A program made the translations under genes and the position numbers. Source: Blasia pusilla (taxonomy: Eukaryota). Taken from it: a DNA stretch of 64,000 nucleotides. The stretch lies in the NCBI GenBank assembly GCA_050084515.1, contig CM114271.1, positions 43,834,001-43,898,000 of the forward strand. Direction: 5' to 3'. The notes beneath the pieces were generated by a model. That model was not told the origin of the DNA, searched no databases, and worked only from the letters and a program-made list of their open reading frames with translations. Positions 5,961-49,688 of this stretch are shown here, one piece after another. Each line of letters begins with the position of its first letter. Position 1 is the stretch's first letter.

Positions 5961-7849
5961 ATGTACGCTTTACCCCAAAATGTCCCAACTCCTCATGGGC
6001 ATTCGCACAATGCGCTCTCTCTGAGCCAAATGCGGCACTACTCGTACTCTACCATCCTCCCACACACGGAGAATATGTGTTCCCTCCAATCGATACCTCT
6101 TAGCACGTTGAAGAACACGGTCTCGCTCCTTGGCACTCACTATGCCTGGCACCCTACTGGTCCGTAGGAAATCCAACACCAACGCATCATCATGAATATC
6201 ATGCTGATCCGTACCACCATCTCCAACCTTAGGATCTGAAGCCTGGCCATCTACCCTCTGACTAGAGTAAGATGTCATGTGGTCCTCCATACTAGAGTCC
6301 ACCCCTAACCAACATAAAAAGGCGGATGCATGCCAACCTCGTACCATCTTCTCATCAACCTCGCCATGCCATCTAGCCCCAGTTGCATCCTCTTGGCTAG
6401 TACATGGGTTCCTACTCAACCCATCAGCATCAAGGTTGGAAACTCCAGGTCTATGTACCACCTGGAAGTCATACTCCTGTAAGATAAGAGCCCACCGTGC
6501 AAGCTTCCCTGTAAGCTTGTCAGACTCCATCAACCACTTGAGTGGCTGGTGATCAGTAACAAGGGTAAACTGTGTGCCAAAAAAGTAATACCTAAAGTGT
6601 GCCACAACCCACACTACTGCCAAGCACTCTCCCTCATATGAATCAGAGCGCGACTCCATTTGCATTATTCGAACGACTTGCATAGGCCACCACAAACTCC
6701 ATGTGCTCATCATCATGTTGTGTCAACACCGCTCCAAGTCCCAACCTACTCCAATCAGTGTGTAATTGAAATGGGCGCCCTCTGATAGGTCTCCTCAAGA
6801 TAGGCGCCACCACCAACTGGGCCTTGAGCTCCACAAAAGCTCTCTCCTGATCATCTCCCTTGTGCCACTCTTGATCTGATTTCAGCAATTGGTTCAAAGG
6901 CTTTGCCATAAAACTAAATCCTTTTACATACCTCCGATAGTAGTTCGCCAATCCCATGAATGCCCGAACTCTACTCAGATCTACCGGACGCGGAATAAGT
7001 GCAATAATTTCCATTGGTACAAACAATCCTTGCCATGAGAGTTGACACCCCAAAACGATGTCTTGGCCTTGTCACTCTCCGAAATCGCCAATTGATGGTA
7101 TCGTGCCTGAAGATCCAAAGTACTGAAAATCTTTGCCTGTCCCACCACATCAAAGATCTCCTCAGGTGTAGGCATGGCATACCTATCGGCCTTGGTTTTC
7201 CGATTGATAGGACGGTAATCTCCACACATCCGCCCATCCATGTAGTTGCCATGCATATCCTTTTTAGCAGGCATGACAGTGGCTGATGCATGCTCTCCAT
7301 GCGACAACTCCACTAATCCAACCTCCAAAAGGTCCAACGTCCTACTCTGAATCAAGTCCCTCTCCATATCACTATATCGGTAGGGACGACGAAAGATTGG
7401 CATATCACTAGCCAAATCAATCCATATACGGGGTCCAACCAAAGCACCCAACTCCTTCATGCTAAAGGCAAAACAACTCCTATAAGCACGTAGGAACTGT
7501 GTCAAGCGTCGTTTCTCACCTCCCGTAAGCTTGGGCCCAAGTAATGGCTCCCAAGTCTCCTCCTTTGGCACACTAGAGGAGAGGCGATGCCATTGGCGCA
7601 CATAACCCCCTCACAAGATGGTACACCCTTAGCTATACCATCATCTGAACAAATAACTCCTCCACCAGCATGAGCAACCAACTCCACATGCCCAGCCATT
7701 ACATCCCATTTACTCCAAGGATGAAAAATACTACTCTCCTCGCCCCCAGTCGATGCCTCTACCATCCCGGTAGCCATCAAGCTCATCACAAGGGGTGGAA
7801 GACCCCTGACATAATCCGAAGTCGACATTTTTGCTCAACCATACCAAGA

Positions 7850-8800
7850 CTCAAAATCCAAGTCAAACAATTCAGGTCCATGGCTTTGACCCAACACATG
7901 ACGTCGTGAAGCCTAAAAATGGAAGCAACCGCTAACATACCAAGAGCAAATCCCATCGCACGCTCTCTCTCATCAGCGTTAGGCTCTACCAAGCCATCGC
8001 ACATGAGAATCCCATACAAGCCTGGGGACCACCTTCCTGTAGGCATGTGACGAGGAAAACTCATAAATGTGGGTAGTGCCATCCTAGGTCGCCCACACGG
8101 TTCACCACCGCCATGGGTGACCGATCAATAACCCTCACCACTGAGAAAGTCACCCAAGATCAAGATACTATCCTTGTAAGGCAAGGATCTGCCAGACCGC
8201 ATCATATGCTCGACGTAGAACCTCCCTAGGCAACAAGTTTGTCCACCACAAGCGTGGAAAATGTGCACACAAGCCAACTTGCGCTGCATCCAACAACACC
8301 GCTGGTCTAATCCAAGACCGCATCTCATGAACACTCGCCATCATCCGGGTCCGAGTGTCACCCAACAATGGAACATTCTCGAGCACGTGCTTGATGAACT
8401 GAAGATGTCGTAACACCCGTAACATCTCCCAAAACAATCGAGACCTAGGGTCGTGTAATCCCTCACCACGACCAGCGCGTGTATGACCCTGACATGGACA
8501 TCTAGCAATCACCAAATCCATAGGACCAACCCTCTCAAGGTCCTACGCCCCCAATAATGCAATGTGTGACGGCAAAGCACGCTGGTACCCACGAATAGCT
8601 GATGGCGGCAACAACTCAGAATATCTCCGCATCAACTGACCAATATGTTAGGATGAGACTCTCTCATCCTGACATATTGGTCAAAATGAGGGTTGTCTCA
8701 TCTCGCTCCACATACACGTATCTTCGCACAGGAATACCGGCCTGCAACACTACAGCCAAACTAGTGCTAATCCCACCAAAGAGATCTAACACACAAATGC
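7850..8800 (-). pseudogene. C5 cytosine DNA methyltransferase domain of copy A (frameshifted)
   Basis: VLDLFGGISTS..YVYVE (motif I/II), DLVIARCPCQG (IV), SRLFWEMLRVL, VLENV (VI), DAAQVG..HFPRLWWTN (VIII), ERERAMGF (IX). Boundaries approximate. Confidence 0.9.
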
Positions 8801-11800
8801 CCTCCGGCGGATACTGCCATACAATGGATGTAGTATCCAAAGGGGATAACCCAACTGGACCAGAAGTAGGAGTCCGCCATGAGGCCTCCTCTTCCTCGTG
8901 AGGTATAACAGCCTCACACCAAGCCTCCTACACTAGGCGATCAGCCTCCTGCCATAGTGCACAGCCTGAACTCCAAAGTGGCACATCCAACGATGAGGAT
9001 GCCATTGTTGCAAAACTAGGGACCTCCTCTACCTCCTCATGCACAGGAGAATCTATAGCAGAAAAATTACCCTCCAAAAAGTCTCCTGGCCAAGTGACTA
9101 CTCCACTAAAACCAACCACAGATGCTAACACCGTTGGGGAAGACCCTCCTAGTCGAGCCCCATAAATAAATCTCATAGGAACTTGGCTCATACGTCCATC
9201 CCCGGACTGCCAACCATGTCTTTAAGACGTTGTCTCACTCCAGTAATCCATCTGAAAACCCATCGGGTATAATACCGCTCCTCCAACTAGTACATCATAT
9301 GACTCGGCTGATGTGACCACTGCAGGTACTCCCAACCGGGAGCTATCAATCGCATGATCTGGTCTCAGCTGTACAGACAACTTCTCCCGTGTCATGAATT
9401 GAGACCTATCATTGGCTCCTCCAAGTGATGTTTGAATCTGGAATGGGCAAGGCTCAAGCTTTGACCTCTGAATACCCAAACCAATACATGCCGCCTTTCC
9501 CAACATCAAAGGTTGGGCACCAGAGTCTAACAAGACTCTATCTGGTCTATACATCTGTCCTGTAGGACTCACCTATCGGAATATCCCACTACGGTTGTCC
9601 AACATACATAATCCAAGTGTAAGCCTCTCACATAATGCATACGATCAATGGTTGGCCGGGCTGGTAATGCATCCATCTTCGCCGCTGTTGCCTGCCAAGT
9701 AGGACTGGTACTCAATGCTACATCTGACATAGAGGGTCGCTCCATCGCAACACCCTCATCCACCTCACCACGTGTAGCACTAACACCCCCACGTTCACAC
9801 AACGTGGCTGCTAGCTGAAATACAAGAGCTAAGTCAACTCCTAAAGCCATCAGCTCCGTGGCTGAAAAAAATGGGGATCCCAACACTGAAGTTGCCATCC
9901 CCAATACTGCAGTGGATGCTGCATCCGAGTCTACTACACGTGATGTAGATACCTCAGTCCCCCATCAGAGGCTCAATAGGCTGCGTAGGAACCATGGATG
10001 GAGTCCTAAGCACCTCAGACAACAAGAATGACTGGGGAAGCCTAGTCTGCCTCCTAGCCTCACCCCTCTATGGGTCCAACTCCACAGTGGCTCTGATGCT
10101 CGAGTGGCTCCTCTCGTAACTGCAGTTGATGCCTCAACTTGTGCTGCACTCGCCATATAAGAGAGATCATCCCCTCCATAAGACGTGAAAGCCCCTGCTC
10201 CCGAACTTGATCTATGCTGGATACCAACCATAGTAGCCAAATTCTGCTCCAACTGCTCAATCCTCAATCCATAGCTGACTTTATCGTAGTGGTAGGGGTA
10301 GCCATTGTAGGCTCTCCAACCACTGGTCCACCTCTACCACCCCTATCACCTCTACCACCTCGGCCTCTCGGAGCTACTCCACCACGGCCGCGGCCTGATC
10401 TCAACTCTGGATGAAGATCAAAGCAACGCTCTTGAGGATGACATGGTCTCCATAATGATCACACCTGAGTTGGGGCCGACCGAGGCCCATCCTCCAAAGT
10501 CCGTCTCCCATCCTCTTGGGGACAAAACCTCCTAACATGATCCCTCCACATCTCCAACATGACTGTCCTTGCTGCGGGGCAGCAAATGAAGGCAATAGTC
10601 TCTGCGCAAGTGTCCCTCTAGGACATGGTTGAGGCCGTGTGTACCCCCCACAACTCCCACTACTACTACCACCACCACTACTACGAGACTGTGAGGTGGG
10701 TGAACACGAGAAGTAGTAGTTGTATCCCCTCTTGAACGGATGTCACCACTCTCTCCTTCACCATGTTAAGCTCAATCTTCTCAGATAGAGCAAACACATG
10801 GGTCAATGTGGGTGAATCATCACTCATAAGAGTAGCATCACGTACCCTACGGTGCAGCTCTCTGTCCAAGATCCCATACCAAAACTCGATTGCCTGAGCC
10901 TCAATCACACCCTAGGTAACTAAATCAAGCGTTGCATAGGAGTGTATGCCTCACGAAGACTCTCACCAGTCTTTCGCTCAAATTCCTTAAGACTCCTCAA
11001 ATTCTCTGTCTTCACTCCCTTATAGTTCTTCTTCAACCTCTTGAAGAACTCTGCAACCGAGCTGAACGATGGTGGGGCACTAGTACCTCCACTAGTATCC
11101 CCACTGGTACCTCCACTGGTACCCCCACTCCAGCTCGTACTCGTACCACTCAACGTCGGGCTGGCTGGCATAGTAAGAGCACTACTACCAATACCACCAT
11201 GGATGATAGACACATAGCCTGGAGACCAATATTGTCTCCACGCCTCAATCTTAGCCTAAACTCATGATAATTATCCATGGGTGGTCCCTCCAAGTGTTGA
11301 AATAAACCCTTCCAAGCCAAGAAGGGTGTAAACAATCTGGCGTTCCGCAACATCTGCATATCACGTATCAAACTCCTGCATGAAGTCCTCCAACTCAATG
11401 GTGCCCATTGCACTCGAGTATCATCGTGGGCCCTTCATGGCCCCATATATTACATCCATGTCCCAAATCAATGGAGCTGCAACACTCGATAATAACGTAG
11501 AAGACTCGGTGTTTGGAACACCCTCGTCCTCCTCTTCATCAAAAGTCGGAAGTGGAAAAGATACCCGATACCTCAATCCACTCCATGTGAAACCACCACT
11601 GTCCGCACCATGGTCCCCAACCAGACTACCAGACTGCTCCGTGATAACCAACGCCGATGCCGCACCACCACTAAGTAACCAAGTGACGTCGATGTCGCTG
11701 TACTATTCTAGCTCTACTAGCTATGGATGTAGGCAACCTAACCTGTCATCACCACAAGAAGCCTCCCATGGTCTACTAGTTATCACTCCAACCACACTAC

Positions 11801-12913
11801 CGGTAGCACATAGGAGTAACACTACTCTGGGAATCAACGTCAACCCTAACAATGGGCGTGCAAGCAAGAAGCAACGATGGAGGGGATCCAAACACAGGAA
11901 GTCCAACAATAACCCTCCAATGGTAAATGGAAATCAAGGTAACACAATCCACCAAATGTGGCGCCCCTTGAATCCACAGAACCCACCACACAATTCTAAC
12001 GCAATAGCTACTCCGCCGCGGGTCGATGATATGCTAGTCTGACTCACAGCACCTGAAAATATCACCTGCATGGAGAGGCTACACCGTACTATGCGCTAGA
12101 GGTCCATCAACCAATAACCTGAGATGCATAAAGTGCCTAACACATCTCCGAACAACACCAAATGAGCTTCACCAGTGTGTACACTGGCACAGTTAAGAAC
12201 TCAGCAGTTAAGCGTCTACCAGGAAAAATAGCCCAAAGATGGCTGACTAGTTATGCAACACTCAAATCACAAATCCTGCAAAAACTGCCTCACGCCCAAG
12301 CTCCTTACTCTGCCTCTCACGCCCACTGGCCCCGAGATACCACGAGTTGCCTTGAAGCCTCGATTCAGATTCCCACCTCCAACATAGGCCACAAGCCACG
12401 AACATCCACGGCTGAGTACACAATCAGCCCTAACCAGATCCTACTGATCCACAATCGAAGCTACCATCGATCTACTCTAGTTCTTTGAGTGAAATCCGTG
12501 AAAGACCTATTGTCATAAAACACATATAGAATTACATACAATCAAGCCAAACCCACTCCACGATGGGAGAATCCAGGTCGAAGCTTGCGGGAACCACCAT
12601 AGCCAAGAGCTCTACTCACTACCAAGGCTAACTCCCAACGCAACAAGCTCAACTCAAAGAACTAACTATTCTTTGAGTGCACTCCACACTATATCCTCCA
12701 ACCTAAGAGCGGGCCCTACTGGAAAATCACCCTCAACTGAGTAACCCCCAACCCTATGTATGAAACCGCATCTCTACCTAGACACTACGGCCCTACATAA
12801 GGTATGGCCTCTACTAGCACACTATACTCTACGACATAATCCGTATGGTCATGACACATCTCATTGACAATTCAGACCAACAGCGACAGAGTAGTGAGGG
12901 GAGGAACACCGTT

Positions 12914-12914
<1 letters not shown>

Positions 12915-13008
<94 letters not shown>
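12915..13008. repeat. (AG)n microsatellite
   Basis: Perfect dinucleotide run. Confidence 0.99.
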
Positions 13009-13011
<3 letters not shown>

Positions 13012-23250: not shown

Positions 23251-26200
23251 TAATAAAACTCTCACTAACACTTGATGAGAGAGAAGTTTACATAGTGGGT
23301 GATTTTACTATACGATAGTGGTGCACATACAGTGGATCAGAATGGCTCTTTACATTAGCGGGGCCTTTGAATTATGCTCCTCCTAGAACAGAAATGCCTC
23401 CTACCTAAGGTGAATACAATTCACGTCCACAAGACGTTGGAAAATGACAACTATTCACTCACACTTCAGACACATGCTATGAGTCACCATAATGACTTGC
23501 ATGTCCTATTATACCTCATGGTAGCGGATTGCTAGTGTCAATAAAGAAAGGCCACTAGTAATTAGTAACATGTTGATATCTAACAACGCTACCGCAATGA
23601 CAACCTCCATTAATAGTATCTCTATGAAACATAGGTTTATGCTTAATTAACCCTTTTGTAAGAATATTTTCCACCATATCATTGGTGTCACGATCAACTA
23701 CATGTATTAATCCCGTGTGGACCATCTCATCATTAAAATGGTCATGAATATCGATGTTTGTTTTCAATTCACTAAATCTTGTTCTATCTAACAAGGCAAA
23801 GCACTTTGGTTATCACTTTGGCTATTACAATCCTTCCTTGTTGATTCCCTATCTTACTTACAAAATTTCTTAACCTAGTTGCTTCTGTGAGAGCTCTAGT
23901 TGAAGCAATGTACTCAACTTCAATAGTGAATAAGGTAATAGATTTTTTGCTTCTTGCTTTCCCAACATATAGTCGTGTGTTTTTAATAAGAGATAGGAAC
24001 GAAAGGTTGATGTTCAATCCCCAATACTACAACTCCAATCAACATCAAAGTAACCACACAATAGTTATGAATTGCCTTTTCTAGTGTACACAAGTCCTAA
24101 GCTTGCAACCCTTTTAGATATCTAAAAATCCTTTTCATAACAACCCAATCGACTAGACCTGATTTAGCCACATATGTAGAAATCATTCTTTATGGTGGAT
24201 AGGGCGTAGGAGCCAACGGACTATCTTGAGTGTAACTTTGCCCCACCATGTCGGATGAGCTTGAGAATAGGTTCATTGTGTCAGGAACGTTATTTTTGAC
24301 AACTTTCCTGTTGAGGTCTCTCACAACCGGATGACTTGTTGACCAAGTCACCCGCCCTTGGTAACATGTGCGCGCAGGTTACCAGAAGGATAGCTATTTT
24401 TAGGGGAGGAGCCTTTTGGCTCTTCCCAACCCTATATAAGGGAGGAAGATGGCTTTCCCATCCCATCTTTCTCATGTTGGGCCATTGGAGCACCTCTCTT
24501 GTATGTGTGTGAGATAGGACTAGGGTGCTAGCGTCCGGATTCCTTGATATCATAGGGTGGACGAGGCTCGATATGCCGATGTTGATTGAGGAGTGGAGTT
24601 TTAGGCTGGGTGTGCCATTTTTCCTACTCTTTAATTTTACATGAGAAAGATGTCAGGGGGCTGGTGAAAATTCGTTGTTTGCAGGTAGATAAGCGAGTTG
24701 CCTCGGTGGGGAGCCCCTGGAGAACTAGGGTAGAGCAGTAGCATAGTGACGGACAGGAGTGCTCGGGTGTAGCACTCAAGTACAGTAGCGTTGAGAGAAT
24801 GGCGTAGTCAAAAAATGGGAAGGGGAGTATTTTGGTGCAAGAAACCATAGCCGTCGTGAGGGCAGCGAGGCTAGGTCAAGTCTAGGGTTAGGGCGTGGAC
24901 CTCCTTCCCGCATAGGGCGCGGCCCTCCCCCCTCCCCCCCCCTTTCCCCCCCTATTTCGGAACCCCCCCTGCATTAACTGCCCTGCCCATAGGGATGCGG
25001 GCCCCGTAAGTCCCCCAAGGGGCCATTAAGACCCATAGGGACATGGGCCAAGGGCCCAGTCCTTTTAGTTTCCCCCTACGTAGTAAACTTAGTTATGTGG
25101 TTCGGAGTGCCGTGGTCGGCGCTTTCCGGATGTGGTTGGTCAAAAGACGTGGTTGGGAGGGACGAAAGTGGCCGACAGGGTCGACGTGGTTGGAGGTACA
25201 GTCGACATGGTGGAGGCGCGGGTGACGTGATAGACGGGCATGGTTGTGGAGGAGTGGATGTTGACGGTGGAGTAGGTTGGTGGGCGTGATCAGGTTACCC
25301 ATTCGAGTCCCTTTTCTCGCATTTATCTTATGTGATTGAGAGTGTTGGGTATTGGGTAGTAGCTGGTGCTAGGTGGGTGGAGTAATGGTGACGAGTGTAG
25401 ACTCTTTTCATGTATAGCATGTTGGTGGATATACGGTGATTGCGGAGTAGGGGTCGCATGTATGACCCGAGAGTGTCGGTAGGTTAGGTGAGTTAGTGGG
25501 AGGCTCATGGTGAGCCTGAGTGTTGAGTGTGCGTGAGGTTGGGTGTGTCATCACGGGATTGACGTTAGCATAGGTGAACTAGTGAGGAGTGTGGGAGACT
25601 CTCCGTGAGTCTGAGTGCTTAAGTGGGTGAGACAGGGTTGTCATCATGGCGTTCTTCCAGGGTTCGGAAGAACGGGGTAGTGCCAGCAGTAGTAGTGGTG
25701 TGACACGGAGTGGAGTGAGATATCGAGGGGTTACGAGTGAGGAGCTACCGTGACAGCCATCTGTGGCTAGATCGTCATCACTAGACATCGGGTTTGGTGA
25801 TGAGATCGCAGACGGAGGCATTATCACTTGGCAGGAGATGGACGATATGGGCCATTGGGGCATGCGTTGTTTGTCGAGTGTAGTGGGCACCATCGACTTA
25901 GATGATTTTATCTCGGAGTTCGACACGTGGTGCGACTTCCCGGAGATACGGACGCCAACACGATTCAACCCTTTCATGGCATGGAAGGGGTTGTTCTAGC
26001 ACTTGGAGGGTCCTCTGATGGATGACTACATGGAGTTTCGATCACTATATTTAGTAGAGATCGATGCCTGGAGGATGTATTGGGCACCAGGGTATGTGTC
26101 CACTAGTGGTCGCGAGGCATATGATGGGATTATGAGAGGAGAGAGACCCACACCATCAGCCCGGAGATTAGATGGAGAGGAGGGCAGTGAGACTGGCAAT

Positions 26201-28559
26201 ATGGCAGAGACCTCTGGTGGTAGAGGGCCACCCAGCTTTAATCCCACAGTGGAGTTCTTACGACAGTTGGGGAAGAGCTACCAAGATGTACACACCGACA
26301 AGCTGAAGAGTCTACAGGATTTTCAGCGACGATCGGGTGAGAGTGTGAGAGAGGCATTCACGCGCATGAGGAGGTTGATCATTGCTACTTATGGAGTGAC
26401 TAAGGTGCATCAGTCCAATATTGGTATGGGGTTCTCGACCGAGAACTACAGAGGAGAGTCCGAGATGCGATGTTGATTCACACAGCGAAGCCTCCATTGA
26501 AGGTGGTCTTCAAGTTGTCTGAGCGTTTTGAGCTCAACATGAGTAAGGAGCAGGTAGTGACCGCTGGATTTTCTCGAGAGTCGATAGGTCTACGAGCGAC
26601 GGTGATTCTTTATGTGCCACAACGAGCACCTGTACCACGGGAGCGGGCCAATGTGCCCAAAGAGCAGGGCGGGTACCGTGAGCCTATGAGGCAACGACCC
26701 GTACTTGCATATGTTGCCCAACAGGGACCGATGTTGTCTTGTTGGACGTGTGGAGGGGCCCATAGGCAGACAGACTGCACACAACATGGGAGAGGACCAT
26801 GAGCGCCTCCGATTGCTCAAGAGCCACAGAGGATGGCCCCACTAGAGTATCAGTGTGACTATTGCCACAAATATGGTCACACTAGGGATAGATGTTTTGA
26901 CCTTCATCGAGAGGCACGTCCAGAGGTAGGCCGAGGGCTTGGGGGCAGTCGTACTGGAGGAGGTTGGGGGAGTTCTTCCTAGACGTGGTGCTAGAGGACC
27001 ACCACCAGCCAGAGGAGATAAAGCAGGAGCACCAGAGCTGGCACTTCTCTCACACATCGATCAGTTGGAGAAGAGGATTGCTGCCATGACGATGATGCAG
27101 CTCAGGGAAGGCACGAAGCGGCAAGCAGCTAGTGTGGCTCCAAATTCTACCTCTTACCCTGACCCGGGTGAGGATCTCGCTAGTATGGGGTTTATGTGTA
27201 GTGCAACTCAGGTTAAGGCGGTTGCAGTGGTGACTCGGGGTGTTGCAAGACGCACTGAGCCATCCAGAGGTCAAGTTGAGATTGACCCATTGTAGGAGAC
27301 CGATGGGCGGCAGGCCAAGGTTCCACAGTCATTCACATTGTTAGAGGCACTACACACACCATCGATGGTACCTCGACGACCAGCGGTGCCTACAGGTCAG
27401 GAAGGTATGTCGACGTCATGAGGAGTTGGAGTGAAAACTCCTATCTCGGCTCGAGTGGAGTCAGTGTCGACCATAGTGTTAGAGGTGGCCACCAGAGTGA
27501 GCCAGACTCCGCTATTTTCCGCCATAGAGTTTGCGACGTTGGGAGTTAGACCAGCTGAGGTGTTTTGACTGGCCGCCACATTGTGTGAGCGTGGAAAGGT
27601 GATTGCTTCTTGTTCAGAGGTAGTTGAGGAGGTGGTGGACTTGCCCTCAAAGCCGGTGCTCGAGATGTCTCCCACAGAGTCATGGCATGCGGCAGCGGCG
27701 ATGTTGGTAGATATGCCAGCTCGAACGGCCATAGAGCAAGCAGTGGTGACACCTAGAGTGGTGTTACCGGATAACCGAGTTGGAGTATTTTGCTTGGTTA
27801 GTTCGACGGGGATAATATACCACCTGGAGCGTGTCCTACTTGATTCGGGAGATCAACCCTTGATGTTAGGGAAGACGGCATGTTTAGCGTTGGGGTTACG
27901 GAAGGTCGACATTGAGCCTTGTCCCTTAATGATACAGACCTCGATTGGGGGCATGTCACCCACGCTGTATATGACTTGACAGGAAATAGTTTTCAGAGTC
28001 CAGCCAGAGCATGCGATGGATAGTGCTATGGTGCGCACACGTGCAATTATGACACCAGCTGAGTCGTACAATATGTTGGTGAGGAGTACAGTGTTATATC
28101 CCCTAGGATTCATCCTTGACTTCTGGGAGGAGACCATTGCTTCTTGGCGAGCGTGGTGGTCAAGTGACGGCCGGATGAGTCAACTACCCGTGCAGTTTGC
28201 GGGACGAGGTGGTCGATCATGAGATGAGTCTCTGACCACGTTGGCATCTTTCACATGTAGTGTTATCTGGCCAAGAGAGTTGTTGGAGGGGAACGCACAT
28301 GCGGAGGATATCCCAGTAGCGGATAGTCCCACAGAGAGACAGGCCATGGCGGGTGCCTCTTCCCATGTTGGCGAGAGCTCTTCACCATTGTGGGGTACGA
28401 CTCGAGAGCTACAGAGGAGTGCCGACGACCTTGTGAGGCAAGCGTGGAGTCATGCCTTTATCCCGGAGCAGCGAGAGTCACGTGGCGATCGAGCTCCTAG
28501 AGTGGAGACATTGACCCCACTGGATACCACACTTGTTGTGTGGCAGTGTCTAGAGGAGG

Positions 28560-30520
28560 CTGTTAGGGTGTTAGATCTCTTTGGAGGGATTAGCACCGGA
28601 TAAGCTGCAGTATTGCAGGCGGGCATACGGGTGCATTAGTACCTTTATGTGGAGAGAGATGAGATTGCGCGGCGAGTATCATTATGTCACATAACAAGAT
28701 TGATCCAAAGGTATCTTGAGTTGTTGCCGGTATCTATAGTACGGGGATATCAACATACACTACCCGCCGCGCGACATCTCTTTGGTGGGGGCACAAGATC
28801 TGGATAGAGTTAGCACCATTAATTTGGTGATTGTTGGATGGCCATGTCACGGTCATTCATCAGCTGGCCGAGGGTTTGGATTGCAGGATCCGAGGTCAAG
28901 GATATTTTGGGAGATGCTGCGAGTAGTATGACACTTGCAGGAGAGTCAGACATGTTCTCCGGCATACATTTTGGAGAACGTGCCGTTGTTGGGAGACAAT
29001 CGTGCACGTGTGATGACGAGTGTGCATCAGGTGAGGTCCTGGTTGGGACCTGCTGTGTTGTTAGATACAGCGTGAGTTGGATCACGCGCCCATTATCCAC
29101 AACTGTGGTGGATGAACTTCATACCATCAGAGGTACTGAGTCAAGCATACGATGTCCAGAAAGCACCACATATGTCGTGCGCCTACTCTCCTTGAACGTC
29201 AATCTCTAGTATTAAGGAAGCGTACGTTCAGTTGGACACGCTCTCATTGCCGACCTGCACCCAAACACGCACTCTCATTAGTCAGCTTTGGGTCAGTCAC
29301 TCATCCAACCCACCGAGTATTCTACTCAGCGTCTCATCAAGCTCAACCCTCCTTGCTTTCTAGGTTCCAAACACGGCAAGTCCTGCAAGACTTGGAACAG
29401 ACTTTCTGGTTAGTCCAGGAACCTAAAACGGCACTTACGCGCCTGGCGGTCCCAAGTGTCCAATGGACCTTGTGCGAGTTCCTAGCCGAGACCCAAGTAA
29501 TTGAGTTGCAGGTTGGAATCCAAGAGGGATGTCTAAAATCGCCTCACTAGACTTGGTTCAAGTTTTCAAGCCCAACTCCAAACTCTCGATCCGTTCCATG
29601 CCCTTGAGCCGCCCCGTGGCGCCCAAAGTGGGGTTTGAGTCCCAAACACCCTTGGAGACCTTCCCCCTTACTAGTACTTTGGGAGATCTCCAAACACCCC
29701 CTACCTTTGGAAAAAGATGGTCGAGCCCTTCATTGTGGCCCTCAACCTGATTCTACTTACAGTCGTTTTTGGGTTGTTTCTCAGCCGCTGCTTATGCGTT
29801 TTCAGAGATCTTTACTACGTTTGAACTAGCTTTCTATAAGCTTTCCAACGCGTCCTTACTCGTTCCAAACGCATCTTGGCGCTAAAAGTTATGGCCATAA
29901 ATATAGTCGGAAACTCTCAAACGCTGGTGGCGTCCCAAATCCGGATTCCTTCCTTTGGCAACCCACTTCCTAGACTTGACTCCTCTCAAGTCTTGATCCG
30001 CGTTTGGTCCAGGTTTCTCAGTCGCAACCACAACATATGAAACGCGAAGCCTCGCTTGCGTCTCGTCTCTTGTCTCTTCTTCGAGACCACTCCAACGCGC
30101 AAACCATCTTAGCGTGAGCCCGCTAATGTTCCGATGTTCTACTTTGGCACTCGGTTGGTCATGAGGATCGTGACAACATCTCATAGTGGATGCTATTTTA
30201 GGCTCAGGGCGTCGATCTCAGGTGGTGATGCGGGATGATAGACCACCGTTGGCGATGGCCAATTGGGTGGGGGAGTTGAGGGCAGCCTCACCTACGCTGG
30301 TGAGCTTCCCATCATCCCATGCCTTTCATCGGGGAGGGCCACGCATGATTTGGGATGAGGTGACCCGAGCAGTGGAGGAGCCTATTGCAGATGAGCGTGA
30401 GCGCGCCATGGGGTTTGCTATAGGTACTACGGCGGTGCCAGGTATGACTGAGGCATCCCGGAGACAGGTGTTGGGGCAGGCGGTGGACCTCACCTCTCTC
30501 ACATGGATAGTCACCCTAGG
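28560..30520 (+). pseudogene. C5 cytosine methyltransferase domain of copy B, interrupted by a solo LTR
   Basis: VRVLDLFGGISTG, LVIVGWPC, DPRSRIFWEMLRVV, YILENVP, then after the 29173-30175 insertion ERERAMGFAIGTT..RRQVLGQAVD. Confidence 0.88.
29173..30175 (-). mobile_element. ~1-kb solo LTR (family X) inserted in the MTase domain of copy B
   Basis: Reverse-complement homologue of 3264-4295. TSD ACATA/ACATC. Confidence 0.88.
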
Positions 30521-33500
30521 AATGGCTGAGGAGAGACGGATGCGAGTGTCATCCATGCCGTCACGTCCACAAGTTGGACCATTGCCTACAGGGTTTGTAC
30601 AGGCATTGGCGATTGCCGGATGAGGAGAGACAGGCACCCATGGACTTCTTGGGGCGTCGTTCGAGTGGAGAGTGCGAAGGCGGCCAGAGCAATACATGTT
30701 CATTTTTTGGATGTGGAGCATGGGGTAGGAGGTCAGAGTGGAGTGGTTGTTGCGGAGGTGGCTAGAGTTGCTACATAGCAACCAAAGCCGGAGGTTGCGT
30801 CCTCTTCGAGTGAGGTCACGATGAAGACTTGGGAGCTTGTGATAGGTCTCAAGTTGATAGGAGGAGAGCGACGGCAAGTTCATCGGTTTTTGAGAGGGCA
30901 TGTTAGTTGTTTTTCCTTCAATATGAGAGACTTGGGTACGCTGAAGGGTCTCGGTATACGGATTGAGTTGGCTAGTGATACGCCGATCTTTTGTCGACCC
31001 TACAGGTATTCTAATATGGAGCGAGCCTTGATTCAGAGTAGGAGTGAGGAATTTTGGAGGCAAGACTTGTGGAGTTATCACATGGGGAGTATGCATCCGC
31101 CACAGTCATGCCGGCGAAGAAGGATATGTATGGCAATTGGACGGATAGGGGGATGTGTGGAGATTACCGTCCTATCAACCGAAAGACGAGGTCAGACGTA
31201 CTCGGTTAGGGGTCGCCCATTCCAGTTACATACGGATTGGAGCATGTTGGGTCTAGGAGCAGTGCTTACTTATAGAGATGACAAGGAGAGGGAGTTCATT
31301 TTGGATTACGCAAGCCGATCAAACAATATTGCAGAGGCAAAGCACAAGTCCTACAAGGGAAAGTGCTTGGCTGCAGTGTGGGCCGTGGCACAATTTAGGT
31401 GCTATTTATTCGGTAACCCTTTAATACTTATCACTGATCATCAGCCGTTGAGGTGGTTGATGGAGTCCGACAAGCTTACGGAAAAGCTTGCCATGTGGGC
31501 TCTATTACTACAGGAGTATGAGTTTGAGGTGGTTCATAGGCCAGGTCGGGCTGAACTAGGATGCGGATGGATTGAGTCGTAACCCATATCCGAGTCAGAG
31601 AGACCACACAGGAGAGAAGATGGCACGGAGAGAAGATGGTGCCTGGTTGGCATGCATCTGCTTATCTTTGTTGGTTGACTATGGTAGGTCAGCCATAGGT
31701 GATGACTCTAGTGGTGGATTTGGATGATGAGTCTTTGGATCCGAGATCAGTGAGGAGGCGACGGGTGGTCGTGATATCCATGACGACGTGGAGGTTATGG
31801 AGTTCTTGCGCACTAGCGTCATAACGAGCATAGTGAGTGTTAGGGAGCGGGATTGGATCCTACAGAGAGCTAGGAGGTTCAGGTGGGAGGGGACTCATAT
31901 TTTGCGGGTATGGGGAGATGGTAGGATACGAATGGTACCTCATCCTTCCCAACAAGCATGTGTAGTATGACATGCCTATGAGGAGTTGGGGCATTTTGGA
32001 GTAAAGCGTACTTACAGCTTACTCCAAGTTGAGTATTGGTGGCGCGGCATGCATATTGGGGTAGAGCAATTAGTGGCCAGATATTTGGTATGTGAGTGCG
32101 AGTATCCTTCAATGCTCCCACTCCGCACTTACATCCTTTTCCGATTATGGGTTTAGGTTATTGGTGGAGTTTAGACTTTGCAAGACCTTTGCCATTGACG
32201 GGGCATCATCATAGGTACATTTTGGTCATGGTGGAGCATTTCTCCAAGTGGATAGAGTTGGTGGCACTATCGGACAAGGCAAGCAAGGGAACAACTTATG
32301 CGTTTCTAGATCGTGTGCTTAGTCACTTTGGTGCACTGGCGGAGGTATTGACTGACAAGGGTACCAAGTTCAGGGGCGAGTTTCAGGCCTTGTGTGATCA
32401 GGTGCTGATAGATCACCGCACCACGTCCACAGATCATCCTGAGGCGGATGGATTGGCGAAGAAAGTAGTACAGATGGTGAAGAGAGGATTACGTAAGTAT
32501 GGCTTGCAGTGGGGACAGTTGAGGGAGTGAGACCTACAGTTGCCATGGTTGGCTATGGGTTATCGCTTTAGTAGACATGCATCTTTGGCGTCATTTTTAC
32601 CGTACTTTTTGCTCTTCGGGAGAGATCCAGATTTACTTGCAGCTATTCGACGTGACATGGCGGAGGTGTTAGATCTTGATGATCCAGATGTGTGGGTATA
32701 AGCGTGTTCTCATATGGCGGAGATTTTTCGTAGAGTCATGCCTATGGCCTTTGAGAACTTGGCTATTGCTCAACATAGAGATACATTGAGGTACGCGACC
32801 ATTCGTGGAGGAGGTTATCGTCCAAGGATTAGGAGGTTTCATCCTGGAGATTACGTGTATTTACAATAGGCGGCATCCACGACCCTAGATATCACTGCAT
32901 GGCGCACAATCCTACGTGTGCACGAGGTATTACCGACCGAAGTCCTCTTGTTGGAGGGACGGGATGGTATGGTTTGGAAGGATCATGTGCATAATTGTGC
33001 GCCATGTCATCTTCTGAACGTAGACGGGATAGTGGATCCGAGCTTGGTAGTGGTACCTGCAGGCTTGAGGTGTATGTTGTGCGGATCTACGAGGGGTGCA
33101 GCCACCATGTTGGTATGTGATGGTTGTTCTCAGGGGTGGCAAATGTCATGTTTGACCCCCCCCCCTCCTTCTTGATGTAGTTCTCACATGACAATGGATG
33201 TGTCTGAGATGTATATAGGGTAGTAGGTCATGTCAGAGAGATATGATATTGTCTATCTGGAGTTAGGGAGATCCAACTGCCAGCTAGGGGGGCGGTTGTG
33301 TGATCTCCATATATATGTATGAGTTGATTTCTGTACATGTGTGGATCTACCCGTGTGTGGGGAAGATCAGTGTTGTGTGATGTAGATGTGACCAGCGATG
33401 TATGTTGTATAGCGATATGTATGCGCACGACAGTTGTCACATCTGAGTAGCCGATAGGCCGAGATCTATCGTGGATAGGGCGTAAGAGCCAGCGGAGTAT

Positions 33501-36500
33501 CTTGAGTGTAACTTTGTCCCACGGTGTCGGATGAGGTTGAGGATAGGTTCATTGTGTTAGGAAGGTTTTTTCTGATAACTTTCCTGTTGAGGTATTTCAC
33601 AACCGGGTGACTTGTTGACCAGGTCACCCGCCCCTAGTAACCTGTGCATGTAGGTTACCAAGAGGATAGCTTTTTTTAGGGGAAGAGCCTTTTGGCTCTT
33701 CCCAACCCTATATAAGGGAGGAAGATGGCTTTCCCAAGCCATCATTCTCATGTTGGGCCATTGGAGCACCCGTCTTGTATGTGTGTGAGATAGGACTAGG
33801 GTTTTAGCATCTAGGTTCCTTGATAGCGTAGGATGGACAAGGCTCGATATGTCGATGTAGATTGAGGAGTGGAGTTTTAGGCTGGGTGTGCTATTTTTAT
33901 TACTCTTTAATTTTGTTGGTGATCTCTATGTATATGTATGAGTTGATTTTTGTACATGTGTGGATCTACCAGTATGTGGGGAAGATCGGTGTTGTGTGGT
34001 GTAGATGTGACCAGGGATGTATGTTGTGTAGCGATATATATGCGCACGACAACCTTTCTACCTAGTGGGAGTGAGGTGAATGACCATGTGTTATTCAACC
34101 TCATAGATTCAAGCTCTTGTTCAATTTCATCCTTACAGTGAAATGCTTGCTAGCCAAAGAGAGCTTCTTTATAGGTCTTAGGTTCTTTAATATGGACATG
34201 CTTCTCTCATTGACTCAATAATCCATGAGTAAACTTCTCCTTCTCTAGATTCCTAGGGAGTGACTCTTAATGGGCTACATCATATTTCTGCAATAGACTT
34301 GAAACCCTTTTACATCTTCTTGTTCCAACACTTGCTTATGTTGGATTTTTATTGTTGGACTCTATTGAACAATTTTTGGCTTCATCTAAACTTGTTTCAG
34401 TACAACATCAAGAAATGTGTTATTTTTTGGAATCATAATAACATTCGTACTCGTGCTTGGAGAAGAAGGAATTAGTGCAAAAGCTTTACATCCAAAACTT
34501 TTAATGTGATTAAGAACTAGAGGGTCTTTGTGCCAAATCTCATAAGACGTTTTATGACCCTCCTCAACCCTTTTTGGTGCTCACGTTGGAAATATGTTTT
34601 GGAAGTTTTTTGCTCTTACTATCAATTCTCTATGCCTATAAGCCTTTCCAAGACTTCATTGTTCTAGCATTACAAGTATACTACAAGTCGAAGTTTTACT
34701 TTTCCTCTAAGTTACTCCATTATGTTATGGAGTGCGGGGGATTGGAAATTGAAATCGGTGGAAAGATATTCTCCTCCATTATCACATCTTATCAAATTCT
34801 ATTTTTTCTCCCTCACTGGTTGTCTACTAGAGTTCTTATAATAGAAACTTATGAAATACTTTGGATTTCTGCTTTAAAAGATACTTAAAAAAATCATCTA
34901 TGAAAGTTAAGAAATATCTTGCTCTGCTATATGCACATGTGTTTAAGAGTCCACAAACATCATAATGTACTAAGCCAAGACCATCTTCAGCCCTCTTACC
35001 ACCATCTTTGGGGAATTTTTCCCTTACTTGCTTTAATTGGATGGATGCGGTGCAAATAGGAAAGTCATCAATGTCTACTCCCTTGTTTTTGAAATGCTAT
35101 GAGTCTGTCTTGGCTGATGTAGTAGAGTTTCTCATGTCATAATCCATCATTAGTTGTTATAGGGAGAACAATGACGTCCTTGCATGTTGATTTTTTGCTT
35201 GATTGCTAAGGTGTTATGGATTCACCTAATATATACAACTTGTTCTTTGATCTACGAATTGCTATTTTTACTTCAACTTTGTTGTTGAAGGTATAACACG
35301 ATTCTTGATTGTGATGTGTCCTTTTACTTGATCAAATTGATCCACTAAGAATTAATTCCTCTTTAGACTACAAACAAACAACACATTCTGGGATAATAGT
35401 TTATACTCCATTCAACAACGTACTTGATGCACACCGATTGCATTCCTTGAATAAACAAGGTTGTTTCATCTCCCACATACACCATTGATCGCTTATTTAT
35501 ATAACTAGCTTGAAACCTGGTAAATGTGTTGAGGTCATGAGCCATATGTTGAGTAGCTCCTACATCCTCATACCAAGTTATATCTGGAGTACTCAAGAAA
35601 ATTAGGGTTGTTTCATAGACTATATAGCCCTAGACTCTTACTAGAGTCTACCTCTATAGCTTTGGACTTAGCTAGAGAGGCAGAGTTATAGTAAGTAAGG
35701 CAATAAAAACAACATATATCTGTAAGGAATGTGATATGCAACGTAGAGAGATGACAATATCTCTTTAAAGACCTGGGGCCTCTAGATTGTGCCCTTCCTA
35801 GAATAGGATCTTATCGTACACAAAGCAAACGAAATTCATGTCCAAAAGTATTGAGTCACTAACAAGTGACATCTGTCACTGACACATTTGACACATATGT
35901 TGTGAGTCAACAGAATGACGTACCTTGCAAACACATTTGTGTGTCAATTGCAAGCTCAGTGCTAGTCGTCATAGTTACAGTGACAAAACTGTTGTTCATA
36001 CTTGCAATTTTTTTTGTTTTGCGGGAGGGGGAGGGTGTGAAGTCAGAATGGAGTCATACAAAGTGGATAGACATTAATTGGCAGTCGCAACATACTAGCA
36101 AAGTAGTTTCTCTTGGCCAAAATGGACTCAAAACGGAGGCGTGTTAATACCTCAATCCCTTATTGTGAAAAGCCTCTAGAGATGAAGAATGGGCCCATAG
36201 GTTGGTGAAAAGGAAAATAAGGATGATTCATTGGTAAATGAGATACCGACACTAGTCAAAGGAAGATCCACTTGCTATTAGAAGGAAATTAGAAGGAACC
36301 ACTTTAGATAAGGGTATATGAAGCTATTCTTTCCATATTATGCTTATCCTTCAATATATCAAAGAGGATGAGAGGTGTTAAGAAACATTTCTACCTTGGG
36401 TTTCCTTAGAAGACGTCTCAATGAATGGGCAAGTATGGTAATAATTATTGTGGTGTAAGAGCGTGTGTTAGATGGCTCATCCGTGACTAAGAAATATAGA

Positions 36501-38136: not shown

Positions 38137-40166
38137 ATGACGGATCGGGAAGATGAAAGGCGGCGTACAAAGCCTGAGACAGATAAGGCTGTCGCTGGTT
38201 GGGGTTCAGCAATCGTTGCTGGTTTCATTGCTGCGGCTTTTGTGAGTTACGAACACCTCGTGAAGTCGGATGTGAGATCTTAGGGCCCCATTCTGATGAC
38301 TGAGCGAAAGATACCTCTCTGCAATTGACGGTGCTTTTGAGATTTCCGTGACTATTCATGCAACTGAAGAGTTTTCCGCGAAAAACTCCTCTGGCTATTG
38401 TGGAGTAGACTTGGATCTTCGTGTGCGTTAGAAAGGTGGCGGGGACATGCCTGGCTAGTCTGCCAGCTAGTGCGGATAAGGTTCTTGAACAAATCGAGTA
38501 GTAACGACCAGTAGGTTTCAGATTGGACTCCCTTAGTTATGCCAAATTTAATTATATAAATCAATCGGGTAAGTTAACATGTCCCGGTCATAAGACCTTC
38601 ACTTGTTGCGCTGCATATTGCAGTGAATCTAAACCTATACGTGGTCAGTTTATGCTGCCGGGCCTTCTCAGTAGGGCTGAAGGGTATGGAGGGAAGACCC
38701 TGAGAGTTTTATTGTTCAAGATTCCATGGCCTAGGGTGGCACCAGTCTCGTGGACAGTGTTAGGGTTTCGTAATGCATATGGTAAGTTGTGAAAATCTGT
38801 CTTCCCGGGAATCCATTGGGCTGAAACTTTTTAGCTTAGAGCATGGACTCAGGAGATTCTGTGAGTGCGACCGTTATTTATTGAACAACTAGGCCACTGT
38901 CATGTTGAGCGGACTTGGATTCTGAACTTGTTATTTTGGTGTAGATTGGGAATGTGATTTCGCTACGGCGCCGTCTTGTGAACTTTCACAGGACAAGTAC
39001 CCAGGTACCTAATTAACCTCTCCTCCAAATACGCCAGATTTTGTTTCAGATTTTGCACTGATAGTTCAGGCAAGCGAAGTCAAATAGCTCAAAGTGTACT
39101 TCAATGTGAGCTACAGCAATCACGGTTGCCAGAGCTAGCATGGTTAAGTCTTCGCCTGACTCTGAAGAAGAGTGATCAAGTTTATCACAACCAGTTCATG
39201 TCACTGCTAGAGTCTACTTTTTCTTGGCTAATAAGTAATCTTCCACTATGTTGTGGTGGAAGGGCAACAGGTCAAGGCCTGGTGGAAGTTCAAGACAAGA
39301 CACCAATTTTCACGGACAGAATGCTGGTTCTCAGCACCAGTCTCGTAGACCACAGCAGGAGCAGCAGCAGCAGCAAACTTGGTCCTCCTTCTATGTGGAT
39401 GAAGCTGAAGCTAGGCGCTTGTGGAATGACCATGTGCAGGAAATGGTATATAGGAGCTTGAATCCTCAATTACTATAAACATCCAAGGCATCTTCACAGC
39501 TTTTGAATTGGGAAGTTTTCAGGATGTGCCCATCTAGCTTCATCTTCAGGATAGTTATGAAAGCTTGTGGGGTGAATGCAATGGTTCAGCTAGAAATATG
39601 TTTAGTGTGGCTTTTCTTTGAGAAGTAGATCCCTCAGAAAAAGTGTTCTGCATTTCATCCAAAGCTACTCGTCCCATTTGGATAGACCACCTTTTTTCCA
39701 TTTGTGTTTCTCACACTCAATATTTCCCTTGTTTCAGGAGCGCATCAGGCGAAGACAGGAGGCCTTTGACCGCGAGAAAATGAGATACAAGAGGAATTAT
39801 GAGTCTTGGCAAGAGCGCCATGGTGACAAATGGGAGTGGAAGTGGCATGGAAATAGATGGGAGTGGCAGGGTGAAGCTGAACGTCGCAGAGCAGAGGAAG
39901 GACAAAACGATTGGTGGCGTGATGCTCAAGGGCAGAAGAGCAGAGGTCAGTCGCAACCTTCAACCAGAGTTAATTCAGCACATTATGCTGCTCTGGGTCT
40001 TGATGCTTCCAGACTTCAACCATACACTGATGCAGAAATTAAGGCTGCTTTTCGTGCAAAAGCCCTGGAGTTCCATCCTGACCAGAACCAACATGATAAA
40101 GCTGAAGCACATAAGAAATTTCAGCAGATAATGGATGCGTACAATGCATTGCGAAAGTCCAAATAG
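38137..40166 (+). CDS. DnaJ-domain protein with N-terminal TM segment and C-terminal J domain
   Basis: Exons 38137-38241, 38945-39004, 39065-39105 (uncertain), 39271-39445, 39738-40166. J domain HYAALGL..EIKAAFRAKALEFHPDQN..KFQQIMDAY. Confidence 0.85.
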
Positions 40167-43100
40167 GATTTTTAGAAGTTTATCTTGGTTGCCTACACTT
40201 GGTTTTGGATCTACTCAAGTAGTAACCTTCATTGTCATGTGGATATCCAGATTATGTGCAATTGCTTGACAGTAAATCTCTTACAATATGTTCTTTAGCA
40301 GTAGGAAACTGTTTTTGCCCAACATCCCAAAGATCACAGGTTATGATGTACTGATATTTAGTGGCAGCAGACTAGTTAATACTACAAGGTCAAAACTAGG
40401 CCTAACCCTCACTTTGTTCTTGAAAATAAATGACAAATGGCTCAGGGGTCTGAGTTGCACAAAGTGTGCTATAGCCTTCCAGATAATGCCTTTTTCATAA
40501 TGTGGTCTCTCCGCCAATCAGTCAGGGAGAGGAAGATAATGTAAACAGCCTAAAAGTATTTTATAGGCATTGACTTTGGTAATGTTCCATCCTCAATTGG
40601 CACTGAGGCAGAAGACAATGAATGTTGAGGACTTGGATCGTCAAGTCTGGCAACTGACAGGATTATCATTTAAACCTCTGTTACTTCATCTGTGCTTGAC
40701 TGCTACCCTCTGTACTGGTTACCTTTCCAGGGATTGCAAACAGAGCACTCTTCCATTTCTCCTCTTGTTGGATGAAGGATGTTTTCATTGATACCCTCCA
40801 TTTCAATGATAAGCATGCATAAATCTAAATCCTGCACCCACAGCATGTGGTTTCTTTCCCTCTCTGAAGGACATGGTGCTCTATCCTCCTAGAATAGAAG
40901 ATTTTCTGTTGACTAGGAATCTTCAAGGTTGTGTTGTAGAAGTGCATTTTGGTGAAATCAGTTGTTGCACTCGAGTCTTCTGGGAAGGTGTAGCCCACGC
41001 CCCCCAATGTCTTGCCACAAGCGACACCAAATGACAACCGAATCAATGTGGCAGTGATATGAACTTGTTGAGGCCCCTGAACTTTTGTATTGCAATTTTA
41101 ATACCATGTTAGAGAGTTCGTTTGGAGTTGACCGTTTGGCCTTCTGGTGCGAATTCACGTTTTTGATGAGTGCACTAGTCAATAGAAGTCTCATCGTCAT
41201 CTTTGTGCGGGGAAGATTGCTAAGGAGAAGCATATCTTGCCTTTGCTTTCTGACCATATACTTTGAGACTGGGTCAGATTGAGGATGGAGGGCACAATCC
41301 ATCCTCAATCTGATCCTCAATATGTGTGCAAAACGTGGATTTGGGAGGGGGTGACCACGTTCTCGATGACAACCCTTTTGATGAAATCAGATGGATAGAG
41401 GAGGGAGGCTTGGATTTTGGAGGAAAGAGTTTGGCGGCTTGCATGTCAAACATGGTGGTTGCAAAGTCCTGACTAAGAATCTCTTTGAAAGATTTCTGAG
41501 ACCATGTTCGCACATTTTGCATATGGGATATCGATACCAGTTTGCTTTCGAGAGCCCACCTGCACTAGATAATGCAGATAAGTGGGTCCAAGTTTGGGAA
41601 ATTACATTACTAGTGTAGATCCCATACCTAATAGTCAAGTTGACATTTCCTTTGACCTTATATAGGGGCATGCATGAGCCGCGCATGGGTTGATAACTTA
41701 TGTACACAAAATCAGATTTCAAAGTAAAGGAGAACTTCCTTAATTACCCACTCTCATATCCCTAAAGTCCAGTTGAAATGCAATAAATGGGGAGAGAAAG
41801 TGTATTGGCAATTAGTGATGCTTTGATTTAGTAATATAGATGCTGTGTGTCAAGCTAAGGGGCTTTGGTGTAGTGAGAACTTATCCTCCCTTCCCCTAAT
41901 AGTATAAACAGATTAAGAGGGGATAGTTTCCTGATTTTCAAATGCCTCCTTGCTTGGCAAATGATATCTTCACTAAAACAAAGTTTTCATAGCATGGGGT
42001 AGCAAGAATGTCCTTAAAAGTAATGCGTCTATCCACGACTGCTATTCATTTGCTTGAAAGAGCTCCGTTGTAGTTTTCATGTTGTCATAAGCCCCCCAAG
42101 GCACTTCCATAGGGTTTCAAGTGTTATCGAACATGAGTTTTTTTTGGAGCGTTTTCAACAATCTCTTTAGAATCCAACTATTGTGGAGAGAAAGTGTAGA
42201 GAAAGTGGAGAGAAAGTGGAGAGAAATGTTTGATCAAACTCTTTCAAGTCATAGCCATCATCCGCCATGATGGGATCAAGATTCATGTTTTGCTTTTGCA
42301 ACTCATTTTGGCTAGTGAGACTCTGACAAGTTCCATCTTGTTGTGACCCCGCTAGAGCTCTAATGTTCTGTGTCGGTGCGCATTTGGTTATAAGAGTTGC
42401 AATAGTATCACAAATTCATGCTACTATTATAGTAATTCAAGTAGCTCTGAGAGTGATCAAATCACAAAGAGGCAGGGTTAAGTTAAATGCATATGTGGGG
42501 ATTGACAAGTGATAGGCCATCATTCTCTAATCATGAAGGTTTTCAGAGGCACTTCATATACCATTGGTATTTCCTAGAAAATCAGTTGCACCTATCGACG
42601 ACATAAAAATGTTATCATTATGAGGAGTTGGAGACACGACTAGAAATTATCAAAATTCTACGATGTATTGGTAGGAAGTAGAGTAATACAACCCTTTGGT
42701 TTTATCCTTGATTTTCGGGAGGAATCGATTGTCTATTGAATAGGATGACAATCAAATGAGCTAATAATCACACAAATGATATGGGTGTGTTGACATCACA
42801 ATGACTCCGAGAGACTCCTATGTTGGCTTAGTTGGAGTTAATATCGAGTAAGTTGTTGGGGGTGGCTATTTCGGCGTGTCAAGATCCATTAAATTCAACC
42901 ATAGATTTGGTGGCAGTGGGAGTTTGACTACTAGAGGTGCTTTGACTAGCCACCATGCTTTGTGAGCGTAGAAAGATTATTGCCTCTTGCACAAAGATAA
43001 TTGGTGAGGAGATGGTAGATATGCCATACTCTATTGCAAATTGACGATTATGACATCATGTAACTCTTCAACTCACGGAACCACTCTAGAGTTGCTCAAA

Positions 43101-47832: not shown

Positions 47833-47932
<100 letters not shown>

Positions 47933-49670: not shown

Positions 49671-49688
49671 AACCTTGCTCTGATACCA
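49671..49688 (-). promoter_or_regulatory. Primer binding site for initiator tRNA-Met
   Basis: TGGTATCAGAGCAAGGTT on the minus strand, 1 nt after the 5' LTR. Confidence 0.92.

Follow-up and report, generated by a model that had tools for sequence, protein, structure and literature searches.

Conserved complementarity between the RNA 5' end and the primer binding site points to Tf1-like self-priming in a split-repeat, methyltransferase-containing Ty3/gypsy family of Blasia pusilla

Priming of reverse transcription by the 5' end of the element's own RNA has reportedly been shown experimentally for Tf1, and is said to be predicted for the Tf1/sushi relatives and TAR copia. As described in PMC7175516, the first 11 bases of Tf1 RNA pair with its primer binding site (PBS), RNase H cutting after base 11; two additional helices beside the PBS duplex form a "pretzel" structure according to bioRxiv 2022.12.06.519325. 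In plants, self-priming was predicted, as described in PMC6317226, for Tcn1, a chromovirus that occurs in non-seed plants, and for TAR, a copia element; for SM-Tcn1, the accessible text of PMC2864245 reports that none was found. On the other hand, KnitGypsy-Dnmt3 of Klebsormidium nitens is described in PMC5890265 as combining Gypsy domains, a DNA methyltransferase (DNMT) and DIRS-like repeats, and Gypsy-DNMT3 elements are also named in the accessible part of bioRxiv 2026.05.21.726589. The accessible text and supplements of PMC5890265 contain nothing on priming, target site duplications (TSDs), a PHD finger or repeat formation in KnitGypsy-Dnmt3. Priming is not addressed in the accessible parts of these two Gypsy-DNMT3 sources; most subscription papers and Repbase lay outside the search, so that an earlier mention is possible.

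The window analyzed in this study is a stretch of 64,000 nucleotides of the B. pusilla genome (GCA_050084515.1, contig CM114271.1, positions 43,834,001 to 43,898,000 of the forward strand), and all positions refer to its first letter. A 9.9-kb Ty3/gypsy element was found at 24191-34051 (+) with the layout A1-PBS-internal-PPT-B1-A2-B2 (PPT, polypurine tract). Repeat A1 (24191-24638, +), consisting of part of U3, R and U5, was 89% identical to A2 (33435-33914, +) over 448 bp, and was truncated at its 5' end, with approximately the first 32 nucleotides missing; relatives begin with TGTCACAT. The PPT, TAGGGGGGCG (33285-33294, +), is followed by repeat B1 (33295-33432, +), which begins with GTTG and ends with GCACGACA. 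The internal B/A junction, GACA-GT-TGTC (33429-33438, +), holds both integrase-end motifs of the element termini: TGTC at the start and GACA at the end of relatives. The spacer between these motifs was GC, GT, AC or AT (the window junction and L031-L060), variants that are consistent with CHG deamination, acting on one strand or the other, having eroded a palindrome, GACAGCTGTC. Repeat B2 (33915-34051, +) closes the element, and the A2/B2 junction was read as joined cDNA ends.

The gag-pol region (25859-33172, +) is broken, and encodes a gag region, C5 DNA methyltransferase (ending at 29177), reverse transcriptase (RT), RNase H, rve integrase and a PHD finger. The methyltransferase was assigned to PF00145 in subfamily A, and a matching domain was found in the window element by tblastn and translation. 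No Chromo domain was hit at the integrase C-terminus, where the PHD finger sits, and no tyrosine recombinase was found by Pfam in the ORF pieces scanned; the rve integrase and 4-bp TSDs were present instead. When 40 5' ends were compared with their 3' regions, 24 pairs were usable: the 4-bp TSD was exact in 15, contained one mismatch in 5, and did not match in 4. One B/A junction pattern, which omits most of subfamily A, gave 1412 matches in the host genome (390 Mb, 26 contigs). The closest named proteins were from Marchantia, Calypogeia, Sphagnum, Klebsormidium and Closterium; an atlas search with P0001 gave only unnamed clusters, at under 0.9. The window copy itself is decayed: pol contains stops, approximately 200 codons of the RT core are gone, a 1-kb solo LTR is inserted, and A1 and A2 differ as described above. 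The mechanism discussed below therefore applies to the family, and not to this copy.

Several other features were noted in the window. Two subfamily-A elements, at 2966-12856 (-) and 51797-61555 (-), were 89-94% alike, and the former has an extra B/A junction piece near 2966-3263, set off by a nested solo LTR. The order of pol was gag region-DNMT-RT-RNaseH-integrase-PHD (DNMT pieces at 55995-56753 (-) and 28560-29177 (+)); in P0027 (of P0027-P0029), the methyltransferase lies between RNase H and integrase, suggesting that the domain moved or was gained twice. Three solo LTRs of approximately 1 kb from another family, at 29173-30178 (-; the unrelated insertion in pol), 48212-49216 (+) and 3263-4289 (+), are each nested in another retroelement; their ends (TGTCACG...GCGCACGACA) are much like those of the split-repeat elements, and a 5-bp TSD is probable. 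The pol insert was considered as a fifth subfamily and set aside, having neither the TATA box nor the primer geometry, together with the probable 5-bp TSD. A DnaJ-domain ORF piece (39606-40166, +) is probably a host gene exon, and two CT/GA microsatellites of approximately 90 bp are located at 12915-13009 and 47837-47928.

The initial annotation, made from the sequence alone, had proposed a tRNA-independent, Tf1-like self-priming signal in this element, and its coordinates were exact: the PBS ACATGAGAAAGATG (24639-24652, +) is the perfect reverse complement of CATCTTTCTCATGT (24464-24477, +; followed by TG), as confirmed by a 14/14 inverted match in self-BLAST, and the latter, the predicted self-primer and RNA 5' end, begins 31 nt past the start of TATATAA (24433-24439, +), a TATA box found in most subfamily-B copies. 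The absence of a TGG-type tRNA PBS also held: a stretch of 12 nt around the A1 end contained no TGG. Dinucleotide resampling of A1 (3000 sequences) yielded complements to the 20 nt that follow A1 of at most 11 nt (vs 14 nt observed). The end of A1 was assigned to 24638, before ACA, because A2 ends with TTTT and is then followed by GTTG, and a clean TTATTTTT/GTTGTGTGATC junction was counted in 475 copies of the genome. The primer of the window element is thus probably 13 nt from A24465 (14 nt if from C24464), covering ACA. The transcription start used here is a predicted one because RNA-seq gave no mapped start.

RNA folding was consistent with this pairing: 24464-24700 gave a z value of -2.95 (0/200 shuffles as good) with both sites paired, and the mean probability for the 13 primer:PBS pairs was 0.84 when folded from 24465. 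In one subfamily-C copy, the primer paired elsewhere, and the pair probability was 0.03. An upstream arm (24442-24452, +) is able to form a hairpin with the primer sequence: -14.8 kcal/mol in the window copy (22/200 shuffles as good) and -22.4 kcal/mol in L003 (0/200), the numbers of shuffles as good being 0/200, 13/200 and 16/200 in subfamily A, subfamily C and the metagenome locus L263, respectively. Transcripts contain this arm only as part of A2, the 3' copy, or when they start upstream. Since it is too close to the TATA box for the RNA 5' end, its effect would be to hide the primer sequence of the 3' copy or to inactivate RNA that starts upstream. A U5 stem adjoining the PBS (24584-24636, +; approximate limits) was found in subfamily B only (8/200 shuffles as good), and was not significant in subfamily A, subfamily C or L263. 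A helix corresponding to the Tf1 pretzel leader was unsupported in the four sequences folded: 83, 50, 22 and 17 of 200 shuffles as good.

The proposed independence from tRNA was supported by a search against 45 distinct host tRNA sequences with 18 anticodons, obtained from 50 of 63 Rfam hits and containing no Met tRNA: the longest match to the PBS was 6 nt in subfamilies A and B and 8 nt in subfamily C. No TGG was present at the start of the PBS in any of the three subfamilies. A pattern search for Met and Ile tRNAs gave matches at the chance level (9 vs 13 in the control). Given these chance-level matches and the tRNA set without Met, half-tRNA-Met or -Ile(AAU) is formally still allowed as the primer. 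An ordinary Ty3/gypsy element elsewhere in the window (43059-50042, -), the 352-bp LTRs of which are 96% identical and which retains pieces of protease, RT, RNase H and integrase, has a TGG-type PBS, TGGTATCAGAGC (49677-49688), one base past the LTR, the usual initiator-Met site.

The initial annotation had placed the signal in subfamily B, and it is not confined to that subfamily: the same geometry was found in three subfamilies with different sequences, indicating a property of the whole lineage. In subfamily B, the pair ATCTTTCTCATGT/ACATGAGAAAGAT was perfect in 25 of the 30 copies that matched best (spacer of 160-162 nt); in subfamily A, AGTTCTTTGAGT/ACTCAAAGAACT was perfect in 26 of 30 copies (spacer of 161 nt). 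The pair of subfamily C, ATTCTCTCTTTGT/ACAAAGAGAGAAT, occurred in all 19 5' copies among 54 loci (6 perfect, 11 with one mismatch and 2 with two mismatches; spacer of 160-166 nt). The subfamily-A elements of the window have their self-primer and PBS at 61349-61360 (-) and 61176-61187 (-) and at 12652-12663 (-) and 12479-12490 (-), respectively. In all three subfamilies, the first base of the paired stretch is an A that follows a pyrimidine, with the T of a TATA-like motif 31-33 nt upstream of it; the stretch ends with GT, which is then followed by TG. A distance of 31-33 nt past the TATA box is the usual position of plant transcription start sites. The subfamily-A pair was also detected in 16 of 80 metagenome loci found via the DNMT domain (5 perfect), and two of the metagenome loci, L263 and L308, have the full split-repeat layout with the TSDs AAGG and CATA, respectively. 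Since the copies of each subfamily were picked by similarity to a single query, conservation within subfamilies (0.997 in the primer columns vs 0.978 in the remaining R-U5) is weak evidence. By contrast, the entire paired sequence differs from one subfamily to the next while its geometry stays constant, and this is strong comparative evidence for self-priming.

The A/B junctions provided information on both ends of the cDNA. In all three subfamilies, plus-strand DNA starts directly after GGGGGGCG, which puts the beginning of B2 at the start of the plus strand and the end of A2 at that of the minus strand. Since A ends before ACA in subfamilies B and C and before AC in subfamily A, the primer lengths would be 13 and 12 nt, respectively. 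The junction was clean in 703 copies of subfamily A, in addition to the 475 copies of subfamily B, and the remaining junctions were examined for remnants. In subfamily A, four loci with different flanks retained a PBS copy ending in ...GAACT (12 nt), and no locus had a copy extending 2-32 nt beyond it; shorter remnants were also found, and all four full-primer loci were solo A-B units and not full elements. In subfamily B, the PBS copy of L164 ended in ...GAAAGAT (13 nt) plus filler, 9 nt were kept in L163, L162 was ambiguous, and single A, ACA and ACAT remnants occurred; L229, L230 and L232 contained the PBS and 35-140 nt of the leader, with short common words at the join. In subfamily C, L389 showed the A end, exactly a 13-nt PBS copy, the PPT and the B start, and is a case of both primers left in place.

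A sharp end at 13 nt had been predicted beforehand for subfamily C, and this was only partly seen: three of the 17 matches were inverted-U3 products, and the other 14 ended between approximately 6 and 24 nt, with one unambiguous and one compatible end at 13 nt; the leader of this subfamily is itself repetitive. In L390 and L391, the PBS is followed by U3 sequence of the element in reverse complement (29 and 54 nt, respectively), which requires that the primer and PBS sites pair during copying, either as an extended RNA primer or as a DNA fold-back. Copies with a common rare junction were no closer to each other than random pairs (distances at the 76th-89th percentile), which indicates that the junction forms anew each time. 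Inherited junction lineages were not evident by distance, except in the neighboring copies L151 and L152 (G000:C1:15.33 Mb), solo A-B units 1.3 kb apart and 98% alike, with the common junction ACA+GTTG and different TSDs. Overall, A2/B2 has the properties of a junction at which cDNA ends were freshly joined, in most cases cleanly. These junction copies of primer length, together with the covariation across the three subfamilies, supported the Tf1-like reading of the initial annotation.

Transcription was assessed in three raw-read runs from fragmented libraries on L018, a subfamily-A copy and not the window copy. Sense RNA was detected through PPT-B1-A2 and through A1-PBS in the three runs, and the read depth decreased approximately three- to sevenfold across A2; some reads spanned A into B. 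No pile-up of read ends was found at the predicted starts (1138 and 1565/6) in the three runs, and the sole "begin" peak was at 1105 in one run. This is a weak test of the start site because the libraries were fragmented and reads from A2 cover the same sequence. As separate observations, 943-1417 of L018 was sense-transcribed in all three runs at a depth of up to 150-220, and some reads jumped back from 1261 to 973 within A.

Based on these sequence comparisons, we consider it likely that the family uses Tf1-like self-priming with a primer of 12-13 nt including ACA; the signal in the split-repeat methyltransferase family is real and probably functional. RNA polymerase II would start approximately 32 nt past the TATA box, and the first 12-13 nt of the RNA, the complementarity of which is conserved, would pair with the PBS 160-161 nt downstream. 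The RNA would then be cut past the paired stretch at GU/UG, a context conserved at the predicted site, probably by the RNase H of the element as in Tf1, and the cut RNA would prime minus-strand DNA at the end of repeat A. With plus-strand DNA beginning after GGGGGGCG at the start of B, as seen in the junctions, normal strand transfers would give an ordinary linear cDNA, B-A-internal-B-A. The two cDNA ends may then be joined to form the A/B junction, a step that we regard as moderately likely, and the DDE integrase would insert the product at the internal GACA-nn-TGTC of the 5' copy, giving A-internal-B-A-B with a 4-bp TSD. The end structure of the elements was directly observed, and joining may have come before or after insertion. 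The end-joining model also allows the mirror layout A-B-A-PBS-internal-B, found in one element with the TSD AAGT (L075/L123, G000:C2:41.50 Mb). A symmetric two-LTR circle was favored on the basis of this element, and was then weakened: it predicts both permutations, whereas A-B-A-PBS was found once vs 340 PPT-B-A-B, meaning that the choice of the integration site is strongly biased. Separately, L009/L096 is an A-internal-B element with the TSD ACCA, and L004, L014, L018 and L135 directly abut a GACA end belonging to another member of the family, a hint that insertion may occur beside the ends of elements already present.

Other explanations of the inverted repeat were considered. AT-rich flanks often contain inverted repeats of 10-13 nt, and chance complementarity might thus have sufficed; however, none of the 3000 shuffles reached 12 nt, and the position and spacer recurred in three subfamilies with different sequences, by which this explanation was refuted, its residual probability being negligible. 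The inverted repeat may alternatively act as DNA, by fold-back of the plus-strand strong-stop product, or as a packaging helix closing the leader, while the minus strand is primed by another molecule, for example a small RNA of the host or half of a tRNA outside the set. The inverted-U3 products of L390 and L391 fit a DNA fold-back equally as well as an extended RNA primer, the tRNA set is incomplete (45 sequences and 18 anticodons, without Met), and the start site was unmapped by RNA-seq. Nevertheless, we regard this as improbable: three unrelated PBSs need three host primers, each matching its own site at TATA+32, the PBS copies kept in subfamily A end on the base predicted as +1, and the PBS of the LTR element at 43059-50042 is of the ordinary TGG type.

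Replication in the manner of DIRS/Ngaro, with an RNA running from A1 to B2, circle closure templated by the B1-A2 junction, and PBS- and PPT-like signals that are relics, appears slightly less probable still. A-coding-B-A-B is the DIRS layout as given in PMC5890265, some reads cross A into B, and the 340:1 asymmetry is better suited to a templated route than to a symmetric circle. On the other hand, the integrase is of the rve type and the TSDs are 4 bp long, the A/B junction variants are not inherited as lineages and some keep the primer and PPT, the decrease in read depth across A2 is as expected if most RNAs end there, and the duplex was kept through a complete turnover of its sequence. Tf1-like self-priming remains the preferred reading. 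Extending it further, we tentatively propose, with somewhat less than even confidence, that the streptophyte Gypsy-DNMT3 elements may be a self-priming lineage with an integration route of its own, in which an LTR-type cDNA made from a self-primer and a PPT has its integrase ends shifted inside the LTR, the cDNA ends are joined (by a circle or post-insertion repair), and insertion at the GACA-nn-TGTC of the 5' LTR gives DIRS-like repeats without a tyrosine recombinase. In this proposal, a choice of 340:1 between two identical sites needs a mark, and strand-specific methylation by the element's own DNMT would be a candidate, since the two sites have the old and new strands in the opposite arrangement.

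Compared with described systems, the terminal layout A-coding-B-A-B is shared with DIRS, PAT and Ngaro, but these integrate by a tyrosine recombinase, whereas the present element combines a PPT and a PBS with a DDE integrase and 4-bp TSDs. Phygy, a non-chromovirus of Physcomitrella, is likewise a bryophyte Ty3/gypsy element of approximately 8-10 kb with a 4-bp TSD; however, 81% of Phygy elements carry a PBS for tRNA-Trp, and the target is NCGN. Neither feature was found here, and Phygy was ruled out by the PBS and target site. Troyka, described in PMC12440569 as having CG...CG termini and a 3-bp TSD, was ruled out by the TG...CA termini and 4-bp TSD. Tcn1 and TAR have ordinary LTRs, and neither DNMT nor PHD is mentioned for them in the accessible text of PMC6317226.

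The closest counterpart in structure was KnitGypsy-Dnmt3, as far as it is described in PMC5890265, with Gypsy RT, RNase H and DDE integrase, a C5 methyltransferase in pol, and A-coding-B-A-B repeats. In a small RT tree, which included no labelled Tf1, sushi or Tcn1 sequence, P0042 of K. nitens, which is not equated with KnitGypsy-Dnmt3, was sister to the clade of the element (support of 90/87). In comparison with KnitGypsy-Dnmt3, junctions in the Blasia genome number well above one thousand, and Marchantia, Calypogeia and Sphagnum also have homologues. Since each A/B junction records both cDNA ends of an insertion, thousands of genomic copies reveal how long the primer is, where the PPT is cut and which errors occur in joining, with no need for an active element. 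The model for the origin of the split repeats bears on an oddity that has stood since 2018, a Gypsy element with DIRS-type repeats. Such elements may be easily missed, or assigned wrong boundaries, by tools expecting two equal terminal LTRs and a tRNA PBS.

In terms of priming, the PBS lies directly past the 5' repeat and is complementary to the RNA 5' end, and RT-RNaseH-integrase is of the Ty3 type, as in Tf1/Tf2 and Tf1/sushi elements (described in PMC7175516); as in Tf1/sushi, the PBS had no match among the 45 host tRNAs (Met absent). In contrast to the 11 nt described for Tf1, the primer here is predicted to be 12-13 (14) nt and to cover ACA; the side helices described for the Tf1 pretzel are unsupported, while the upstream arm can mask the 3' primer copy. 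The PHD finger in place of a chromodomain, the DNMT in pol, and the split repeats with internal integrase ends differ from Tf1/sushi elements, leaving membership in that group unsupported. If the present reading is true, a large lineage from non-seed plants, which differs in the length and boundary of its primer, would be added to the self-priming elements; the element appears to work like Tf1 and fits the Gypsy-DNMT3 type.
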